Assembly (NCBI GenBank): GCA_951406725.2
Contig: OX597827.1
Location: forward strand, 26,474,001-26,538,000
Origin: Octopus vulgaris
Lineage: Eukaryota
Length of the DNA: 64,000 nucleotides
Direction of reading: 5' to 3'
Shown: one piece after another, positions 46,610 to 56,447 of the stretch
How the letters are laid out: each line of letters opens with the position of its first letter
How positions within the stretch are numbered: position 1 is the stretch's first letter
Notes under the pieces: model-generated
Database searches by the model: none
Told to the model about the DNA's origin: nothing
The model's input: the letters and a program-made list of their open reading frames with translations, nothing else
Program-made: the position numbers and the translations under genes

Positions 46610-46836
46610 GCATATAATTATATGTGTGTCTTTTGTCTGTGTTTGATTTCCCACTATTGCTTGACAACCGTTGTCGGGGTGTTTACATCTCTGTAACTTA
46701 GGTGTTCTGGTAAGGGATCGATAGAATAACTACTAGGCTTATAGAGAATAAACCCTAGAGTCGATTTATTCGACTAAAATCATTTAAGGCGGTGCTCCTG
46801 CATGGCCGCATTCAAATGACTGAAACAAGGAAAAGA
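46053..46836 (+). mobile_element. SINE family B split by an insertion into its internal (TA)n
   Basis: head 46053-46206, tail ~46625-46836, foreign block 46250-46576 between TA tracts. Confidence 0.85.
46252..46576. mobile_element. (TA)n-inserted foldback element: ~110-bp arms, ~3-nt loop at 46363, ~95-bp unpaired tail
   Basis: aaaagggcttagtaaagaaaattactttgccacatactgaactcattagaaata and its exact inverse. Confidence 0.85.
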
Positions 46837-48059
46837 ATATATATATATATATATATTCTTTTCCTTGTTTCAGTCATTTGAATGCGGCCATATATATATA
46901 TACATGTTTATGTACCTCACCGTGTTCTTATCTGTGCACACTCTACTATGACCTGTTGTAAAAATCTATGCTACCGTACCCTATTAAACTCCGCATCCTC
47001 CACCATATGTTTACATTATTTCAACACAAGGTTAACTTCCCGTAAAAGTACAGCACCGAAACTTAAAGACATTAATCTCTCACATATTAACCTTTCGCTA
47101 ATCTATCGACCTCCATCCTGAAACTAGAGACATCTAATCAGGCATCTTATTTGGATCAAAATACCAAACATTAAATCGGTGAATTTCAGTTCTTGTAACA
47201 ATATTTTGTTGTTTTACACAATGGCATCGTAAAAATAGGTTTATAAAAACCACCGGAAATATGATGTATATTTGATACGGCAAAGTACATATTGATATAT
47301 TTCTCAAAGATTGACTCTTAATACAGCTCACAATGTTGTCGGCGTTGTTGCTAAGCGTCGAACAGTCAAATGGGATTACATTGTCTTGTGACATATTGAT
47401 GTCCGACACTCGTGAGACGCTGCAGAAATTCCCCAGTGCCACTATGGGGTTTGTCATTCCAACATGCGTAGTTTTATGACGACCTATATTTCAATGCTTC
47501 TGTGTTAATTTCCCCAACACCACCACCAATACCACTCCTATTCCCACGCCGACGACTTCAATTGCTTCTTCATATAGTCATTATAACAATACTTGGTCGT
47601 GGATAGAATTATTGTGGCTGTGTCGATGTATGTTTGTGTACGTACATGGGTTAAGTCTATGTGCGCGTGTGTGTGTACGTACGTGTATGTGTGTGTGTTC
47701 AATTAATAATAGTCATGATCTTCACAAAATATTTTTTATTGGCCTACAATTATTATTACTTTTTCCCCTGTAGATTAAATTTCTTAATTACGGGTTGCAA
47801 AAAAAACGTTGATAATTGTATGTCGTACAATTGTAACTGTTGCGACGGCCCCATACTCCTCTTCCATCTCACACATTTATGCGAAACGTGTAAATTAGCC
47901 GAATGGATATAAAATTTAATAAAAATAAAAAATTGAAATACAGACGAAAAATATTTTTTTATATTTCTTCTTCCAAGAACTGCTTTCTAAATTCATTTTC
48001 AGTTCAATTTTACTAAAGAGTTTTTAATTCTTAGTGTGTATATTAGCAGTCCAGGAATG

Positions 48060-54641: not shown

Positions 54642-54695
<54 letters not shown>

Positions 54696-54720
54696 AAAAA
54701 GCAACAAGAATGGATTAAAA

Positions 54721-54808
54721 TCTCGGTACAATTGTTTCGTACGAGGACATCTTTAATAAGCTACAAAAAATGCAGTAAATACAGATGGCTCGTACTCGTC
54801 AGCCGAAA
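54721..54808 (-). ncRNA. type I hammerhead ribozyme, fully canonical
   Basis: minus: UUUCGG-CUGACGA-GUACGAG..CAUCU..AGAUG..CUCGUAC-GAAAC-AAUU-GUA-CCGAGA; 6-bp stem I, 7-bp stem II base, GUA triplet. Confidence 0.88.
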
Positions 54809-55337
54809 AAACATCAGAGAATTCCCAAACATCAAAAGGGGTAGATACAAATGAGGGTGTAAGATTAACTGCATTGAAGAAAGTTCGATTCCTGGAGATC
54901 CGATGAAAGGTCTTAAACTTACAGAATTTGTGCATGTCTATATATAGCTCATATTGGATTGTTAATCAAGTTATGTGAAGAAATTTCGGATACAGTCATG
55001 CGAAATTTCTGAAAATCCGAGTAAGAAGCAAAGTGACTGTCATATCGTGTAGAGGAAAATCCGAGTAAGAAGAAGCAAAGTGACTGTCATATCGTGTAGA
55101 GGAACAGATTGTTATTGAAATTTACAAGAATCACAGATAAGTTCGATTCCTGGAGATCCGATAAAAAGTCTTGAATTTACAGAATATGTGCATGTCCCTA
55201 TAGTTCATAGTGAATTATTAATCAAGTTATGTGAAGAAATTTTGGGTACAATCATGCGAAAATATCAGGGAATCCGAATGAGAAGCAAAATGACAGTCTT
55301 ATTCTGTAGAGGGGCAGATTGTTATTATCTGATGTTT

Positions 55338-55425
55338 TTTCGGCTGACGAGTACGAGCCATCTGTATTTACTGCATTTTTTGTAGCTTATTAAAGATGTC
55401 CTCGTACGAAACAATTGTACAGAGA
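55338..55425 (+). ncRNA. type I hammerhead ribozyme (inverted twin of 54721-54808; one stem I mismatch)
   Basis: tttcgg-CTGACGA-gtacgag..ctcgtac-GAAAC-aatt-GTA-cagaga. Confidence 0.82.
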
Positions 55426-55773
55426 TTTTAATCCATTCTTGTTGCTTTTTTCCTATTTGTAATCACCCCACTTGTCGTATGGTTAACACCATATAGATTT
55501 TCGGTGCATCCTAGTTAAGGACCATATTCATGTGAATTCATTAGCATTCACTTGAATCTCAATTACTTAAACCGTATATATATATATATATATATATATT
55601 GTATATAAGAAAAGGGACAGGCAAACAGGTTGCTTGACCGCATACCGAAAAAATAGAAATAGCAGTCAAGAATGCTTATTTCTATCAAAGTTGGACTCGG
55701 GCACGACAAACCCTGTAATTCACATATGCAAAACAGAAGGAATAGATAACGAAAACGAAGTCTGGTGGTTATC

Positions 55774-55884
55774 TGTGAACATCATGTTTCTGGATTATAA
55801 ACATATTGAATATATATTTCATATATATTTTTGATATATATTTCATATACATTGCATATATATTTCGCATCCTTCTTCAGCACA
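55774..55884 (-). ncRNA. type I hammerhead ribozyme with long AU-rich stem-loop II (left arm)
   Basis: inverse of 55986-56096. Confidence 0.65.
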
Positions 55885-55985
55885 CTTTTGCTCACTTTCT
55901 TCAAATATTTTGATGTCGCATGGTCAGAAGGTTTGAGGTACGTAGCATTTGATAAATCTATGATAAATCTTTTTCAATGGAAAGC

Positions 55986-56096
55986 TGTGCTGAAGAAGGA
56001 TGTGAAATATATATGCAATGTATATGAAATATATATCAAAAATATATATGAAATATATATTCAATATGTTTATAATCCAGAAACATGATGTTCACA
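55986..56096 (+). ncRNA. type I hammerhead ribozyme with long AU-rich stem-loop II (right arm)
   Basis: UGUG-CUGAAGA-A-GGAU..(AU-rich)..AUCC-A-GAAACA-UGA-UGUU-CACA; stem I UGUG/CACA, stem III ACA/UGU, GUU triplet. Confidence 0.68.
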
Positions 56097-56398
56097 GATA
56101 ACCACCAGACTTCGTTTTCGTTATCTATTCCTTCTGTTTTGCATATGTGAATTACAGGGTTTGTCGTGCCCGGAGTCCAACTTTGATAGAAATAAGCATT
56201 CTTGACTGCTATTTCTATTTTTTCGGTATGCGGTCAAGCAACCTGTTTGCCTGTCCCTTTTTCTTATATACAATATATATACTGAACTTCACAGAAGTTC
56301 CTGCCGGTAATCGGCTATATTTACATACCGAATTCTACCAGTAAATAATTGGGTTTTTTTTAAAAGCCTTTATAGAAATTATTTATTCTTCTTCTTAT

Positions 56399-56447
<49 letters not shown>

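Follow-up and report, generated by a model that had tools for sequence, protein, structure and literature searches.

The ribozyme and the breakpoint

Two repeats with one part inverted adjoin each other in the window, the whole stretch of 64,000 nucleotides of Octopus vulgaris DNA analysed here. Each carries a hammerhead motif and lies against TA microsatellite. In the second, element 2, the inner end of the inverted arm falls at stem I of the hammerhead. Is the point at which such a copy changes strand set by its ribozyme and, if not, where does the order in these insertions lie? The features are as follows (unit positions are those of family 2, the repeat family of element 2, counted from 0 in the natural unit L007:1829-2472).

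54691..55574, element 1, a head-to-head stub of a Penelope-like element (PLE): inverted arm 54691-55326 (636 bp), sense part 55324-55574
55575..55598, (TA)n tract common to elements 1 and 2; its last 8 nt match TATATATA at 56274-56281
55599..55884, minus strand, inverted 'short-end' arm, unit 227-514 (522 including the TA run)
55878..55890, head-to-head junction, AGCTTT, unit 124-129 against 222-227
55885..55985, plus strand, 'spacer', plain sense unit sequence, positions 126-226
55985..56097, plus strand, type I hammerhead motif: stems, core, predicted cut after GUU 56092
56098..56281, plus strand, 3′ module also conserved in family 3, with the internal ATATATATA at its end
56282..56402, plus strand, tail of about 119 nt from short end to long end, the latter running into the right (TA)n
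56403..56445, right (TA)n tract

The order of parts in the region of element 2 (55575-56445) is (TA)n, inverted arm, spacer, sense arm, tail, (TA)n, and the layout given for it in the first-pass annotation is real. Reverse-complemented, the left arm (55599-55884) matches 55986-56273 at 98.7% identity, the two differing by one substitution and two 1-nt indels, and 8 nt of TATATATA extend the match (55591-55598 against 56274-56281). At the left arm edge TATATATA is thus target microsatellite and the internal run 56274-56281 at once. Target-site duplications are unreadable inside (TA)n. The substitution, in the left arm, is private to the window copy when set against the loci examined, and the two left-arm indels, which lie in homopolymer runs, recur in 4 and 11 of those loci; as a sign of a second template these variants are therefore uninformative. 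Elements 1 and 2 had been called unrelated, and in sequence they are (alignment score 82 against 77±7 for shuffled sequence). Most likely they adjoin since both target (TA)n.

The strand switch itself is at CAGCACA|CTTTTG, on an inverted microhomology, AGCTTT (unit 124-129 and, inverted, 222-227), with one G lost. The first-pass annotation placed TGTG (55986-55989) and CACA (55881-55884) correctly, but stem I starts at 55985 and the arm, said to end exactly at the stem, cuts off its outermost pair. The coincidence arises in the window copy because the AGCTTT microhomology happens to lie there. Microhomology, not the ribozyme, best explains the breakpoint of element 2.

A young repeat with a predicted hammerhead

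Element 2, which lies in (TA)n, is a copy of family 2 truncated to less than one unit, with its halves head to head. The family forms tandem arrays of head-to-tail units, 644 bp long and also about 616 bp. It is young and abundant: there are 1525 candidates, the best 40 at 97-100% identity, and one 29-mer has 526 exact matches. The longest stop-free frame of the unit is 80 aa on the plus strand and 65 aa on the minus strand. The unit is covered by contigs from four runs tentatively taken as RNA, though they show neither ends nor strand and may hold DNA. One locus (L100, G000:C1:120154800-120164790) has as its short-end arm a 7.9-kb array of about 13 units of about 616 bp, opposite a 200-bp long-end part.

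The hammerhead of element 2 has a 5-bp stem I (CUGUG/CACAG, from 55985), CTGAAGA at 55990-55996, GAAA at 56081 and GTT at 56090-56092 followed by CACAG, and cleavage is predicted after GUU 56092. RNAfold of 55975-56110 gives a three-way junction (z −3.3). Loop II had been described as expanded and AU-rich. It is AU-rich, but the 83 nt between CUGAAGA and GAAA fold as a long extension of stem II. Stem III has 2-3 bp and there is an A.A apposition at the base of stem II, features which together may lower self-cleavage of a monomer. A mismatch at the base of helix II also occurs in axolotl HHR_Amex2, according to the relevant portions of PMC7229834 and 10.64898/2026.07.22.740005. The inverted arm holds a second hammerhead motif, on the minus strand, with a 4-bp stem I, and the motif was tabulated in 139 family 2 copies. 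Rfam searches of the window and of 54690-56410 returned no hammerhead match, giving only hairpin and microsatellite miRNA noise. Conservation of the fold is supported because family 3, a related repeat, changes two stem I pairs compensatorily (CCAUG/CAUGG).

A short tandem unit that is non-coding and carries one type I hammerhead, in young dispersed copies, is also what the retrozyme sections of Cervera & de la Pena 2020 (PMC7229834) and Li, Clavereau & Pollet 2026 (10.64898/2026.07.22.740005) describe for animal non-LTR retrozymes. By structure, family 2 is such a retrozyme, one with predicted self-cleavage. Mobilisation by PLEs is presumed in those sections for animal non-LTR retrozymes, and likewise here. 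Unlike the retrozymes described there, family 2 has a 644-bp unit and a helix II extended to a long AU-rich stem, and the majority of the copies sampled are truncated pairs, joined head to head, whose short and long ends are fixed. Word searches of the available text of the two papers returned no such pairs. For a retrozyme in cephalopods the literature search found PMC8557442 alone.

Inner ends are scattered

The expectation that inversion breakpoints are tied to the ribozyme or pLTR boundary across foldbacks was mapped in 182 family 2 loci, picked by sequence near the 3′ end and blind to 5′ structure (62 from the 29-mer list, covering contigs 1, 2 and the start of 3, 40 of the 58 in a second list, and two lots of 40 out of the 100 in a third). 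The 23 best-match loci, including the window copy, were kept outside these unbiased counts, and two two-armed copies cut by a locus edge and four complex or ambiguous groups were dropped. This left 113 copies in which two arms and both ends were visible, the joint being 5′ to 5′ in every one, and 72 single-segment groups; some of the latter include inverted pieces that are too short to be scored.

The inner arm end lies within 5 nt of the 5′ strand of stem I in one of the 113 copies, with 1.9 expected, and within 10 nt in two, with 3.7 expected. For family 1, the family of element 1, it is within 10 nt in 1 of 17 (30 loci picked by terminus). Inner ends are scattered, stem I does not set the breakpoint, and the coincidence in the window copy is chance.

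The junctions have a character of their own. Overlaps of at least 3 nt are present at 23/63 insert-free junctions against 7% for random joins, overlaps being somewhat inflated by the mismatch-tolerant ends with which they were measured. Inserts occur at 25/88. The two inner ends of a copy are within 35 nt of each other in 43/113, where 18.5 are expected (none of 20,000 permutations reached 43), and several of these near-coincident junctions sit on natural hairpins (unit 338/361-366 and 427-459).

Outer ends are nearly fixed

The order of these insertions lies at nearly fixed outer ends, not at the inner ends. In 72 of the 113 two-armed copies the outer end of an arm is at unit 488-522, the short end, of which the internal ATATATATA at 56273-56281 is the preferred site; the long end is at about 641. 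Most arms that end outside 488-522 do so at smaller TA words, and where the flank is pure TA, a TA run of at least 4 nt is present at the outer end in 38 of 58 arms against 7.5% of random ends. When copies were picked by the short end, all 24 two-armed ones had a long end (633-3) opposite. That set comprised 30 matches, three of them single-armed and another three, at one locus of short tandem bits (L284-L286), left out, and 13 of the 24 were also in the earlier sets. Among loci picked by the 3′ part, long apparently faces long only at L210. Tails are about 119 nt in family 2, 118 in family 1 and 99 in family 3. The outer end of family 1 is at 727-735 in 16/17 arms, and in family 3 the homologous site is the arm end in 18/21. 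The first-pass annotation had read a defined mechanism from the inner breakpoint; a defined mechanism is indicated, but by the fixed outer ends and the tail.

The family 2 insertions have the traits of PLE insertions: an inverted 5′-truncated copy, a tail and a (TA)n target. These traits are already described, in the pertinent parts of the text, for Hydra-clade EN+ PLEs (PMC8557442, Craig et al. 2021; PMC3846280), with which the present elements share head-to-head arms, a tail at one end, (TA)n and a canonical HHR. Unlike those PLEs element 2 encodes nothing, and the tails here, of 99-119 nt, compare with 30-40 nt in the EN+ PLEs described in the same parts. How PLEs make tandem and inverted copies is there called undefined (PMC8557442).

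Probable priming from both target strands

Element 2 was probably copied into (TA)n by a Penelope-like RT/GIY-YIG enzyme, with both target strands priming on one RNA. Such an enzyme would act in trans on family 2 RNA, and the two strands of the cut target would both serve as primers for cDNA on a single source RNA: one at the long site, unit about 641, and the other at the short site, unit about 511-522, aided by pairing of UA with the target. Both cDNAs would run towards the 5′ side of the RNA, through the hammerhead, here to unit about 126 and about 222-227, and would then be joined by microhomology, AGCTTT.

The family-wide geometry favours this reading. In 36 of the 113 copies (the junction being allowed to slide by the overlap plus 12 nt) arm sequence is absent from the other half, and these are therefore not simple self-copies. 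Yet similarity between the two arms of an insertion exceeds the family median in 52/56, and in 22/24 of the non-fold-back copies, from which one source follows. Both arms exceed 600 bp in 8/113; a multimeric or circular template is therefore likely. Family 1, by its sequence the 3′ terminus of a coding PLE, gives this same footprint next door to element 2. At one of its loci (L244) the short site is the end of an ORF-bearing arm of more than 2 kb, which faces a part of 0.8 kb, and in element 1 itself containment fails, a 636-bp arm facing a 250-bp sense part, by about 490 nt. Some observations stand against two-strand priming. The window copy is compatible with folding back, its arm lying inside the sense part with a 101-nt loop, and the near-coincident inner ends of 43/113 are as predicted for snap-back at hairpins. 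The lack of enrichment of L1-type junctions and the outcome of the helper search, both given below, also count against it.

In vitro, the PLE protein PAc cleaves both strands of the target and extends each of them, beginning at two internal sites of the RNA between which the tail lies; hammerhead cleavage is not required (PMC11167929). The insertions analysed here would be analogous in all three respects: extension of both strands, two internal starts bounding the tail, and dispensable HHR cleavage. The PAc start site is non-homologous to the target and the same for both strands, which alone gives no strict pairing of short with long; the ends of family 2 coincide with UA runs and pair strictly short with long, unlike those of PAc (PMC11167929). 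A bolder proposal is a polarised form of twin priming, in which a helper acts on a conserved two-site RNA module, each strand always using one site, on multimeric or circular RNA with some templates cut by the ribozyme. It is offered tentatively, being possible but rather doubtful. If true, it replaces the self-priming proposal, and the hammerhead has a measurable, non-essential footprint in vivo, cDNAs running out just 3′ of the cut.

In the twin priming of L1 two primers act on one RNA, giving a 5′ inversion with a microhomology join. Inversions of L1 involve no duplication of sequence, whereas the two cDNAs of family 2 often cover the same unit positions. An L1-type abutting junction, with the sense start at the outer end of the arm, was looked for and is not enriched (17/88 against 13.7, p=0.16). 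The literature search, with subscription papers and supplements outside it, found no paper tying inverted Penelope copies to twin priming.

A rival proposal: folding back of a single cDNA

Self-priming has been proposed, in general form, for head-to-head Penelope copies in the section of Arkhipova et al. 2013 (PMC3846280) on such copies, which supports it for them and was the only source of this proposal that the literature search found. In this scheme one cDNA, after stopping, turns back at a microhomology or hairpin, is extended on itself as far as an internal TA run and then anneals to the target (TA)n. The window copy fits, AAAGCT pairing with AGCTTT; its structure suits snap-back and two-strand priming alike. 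The geometry of 77 of the 113 copies is compatible, near-coincident inner ends in 43/113 are what it predicts, and the likeness of the arms of one insertion is as it expects. It meets its difficulty in the 36/113 copies where containment fails either way, so that the geometry of about a third of the copies contradicts the proposal in the form given in that section. Element 1 and L244 fail it by hundreds of bases. At near-coincident junctions the extra letters are on the arm side in 20 and on the sense side in 14. Further, the fixed short end of family 1 has a TA likeness of only about 3 nt, yet holds in 16/17 arms. Deletions at palindrome centres could turn fold-back products into seemingly incompatible ones, and snap-back may act in a subset of copies. 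As the route to these insertions in general it is unlikely, and priming from both target strands is preferred.

A possible softer role for the ribozyme

It is very unlikely that the place of inversion is determined by stem I or by its cleavage: one of 113 inner ends is within 5 nt of stem I, both arms of the window copy read through the hammerhead, and HHR mutants insert normally in vitro (PMC11167929). What survives is a softened form. In the first sample stops were commoner over the 90 nt on the 3′ side of the predicted cut than over the 90 nt on its 5′ side (82/15193 against 28/11041, p=2e-4), in a stretch chosen after looking at the data; the best step in a scan of stop density was at unit 334-338, the cut site. 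A replication with the stretch set beforehand gave 23/2922 against 8/1870 (p=0.09). Pooled, there are 5.8 against 2.8 stops per 1000 nt at risk. Of the 43 near-coincident junctions 30 are at unit 315-460. The two-fold excess is suggestive, and would be explained if some templates were linear after cutting by the ribozyme, or if synthesis stalled ahead of the folded motif. However, the zone is broad, with no sharp peak at the cut: a single stop is exactly there and six are at 338, the point at which stem I gives way to a local hairpin. Ends that belong to the same insertion are not independent, end positions are less certain in the repetitive stem II, and family 1 has no pile-up of stops at the cut.

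The least probable source of the head-to-head layout, highly improbable as such, is chimeric palindromic long reads: the exact junction is unbridged in four short-read contig sets (uninformative for a possibly private insertion), but artefact is unlikely since the layout recurs at more than 100 independent loci with fixed, family-specific, asymmetric ends and short-read contigs contain other strand-switch joints of family 2, while the arms of element 2 differ by a substitution and the layout is described for PLEs in the part of PMC8557442 devoted to it.

Element 1 and related elements

Element 1 has its own hammerhead and a tail of about 118 nt. Its arm was said to end about 10 nt from stem I, which holds for the self-complementary part only; the joint at 54818/54819 is normal sequence in family copies, and the inverted arm therefore extends over 54691-55326 (636 bp). 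Internal direct repeats of about 258 bp and 47 bp lie at 54881-55326, in the family 1 3′ UTR.

Judged by its sequence, family 1 represents the 3′ terminus of a coding PLE that is young and has endonuclease motifs of the Hydra type. Its open frames reach 1091 aa with two N-rich stretches (L244:7895-8686, minus strand; L249:2502-3479, plus strand; L438), and the N-rich frame ends about 1.2 kb upstream of the hammerhead. The frame has CxCX5C, GIY-YIG-like, CxxC and CxH motifs, the Pfam GIY-YIG match being just under the cut-off (E 3e-4). A C-terminal EN with a CxCX5C linker, CxxC and CxH is thus joined to a canonical HHR and (TA)n. CxCX5C, CxxC and CxH motifs with N-rich inserts are likewise given for the Hydra clade in the portion of PMC8557442 on its endonuclease. 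A 6.2-kb tandem-duplication stretch adjoining family 1 stubs contains an intronless dCMP deaminase frame (L240:3270-3935, G000:C1; Pfam PF00383, E 1e-27), which may be a retrocopy.

Family 3 (1795 candidates; L394:1290-1690 and L365:2497-2790) aligns to family 2 from the hammerhead to the 3′, long end (score 215 against 106±10 shuffled). It has the same short/long head-to-head layout, with one short tandem seen (L414), and no linked ORF was found in 30 of its loci.

A helper for family 2 was sought among 30 of 6136 GIY-YIG and 30 of 17523 Hydra-type candidate loci. None of these has a coding PLE with a family 2-like 3′ end. The family 2 unit was unmatched by blastn against their 3′ regions; the GIY-YIG loci lack any family 2 match, bar a stub of family 3 at an unrelated locus, and the Hydra-type loci match family 1 only. 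One short-pattern search also gave no match. The GIY-YIG loci represent another young PLE family, which has a 781-aa RT and GIY-YIG frame in many intact copies (L364, L369, L383), with no CUGAnGA core between the endonuclease and the next TA tract.

Element 2 itself is ordinary for this genome. Families 1-3 are a young, dense data set in which self-priming and two-strand priming are testable at base resolution, and the existing in vitro PLE assay could directly test both the weak step in stop density at the hammerhead cut and the pairing of short with long ends. Elsewhere in the window, at 46796-46898, two inverted SINE-like ends form a short near-perfect hairpin around a TA run.
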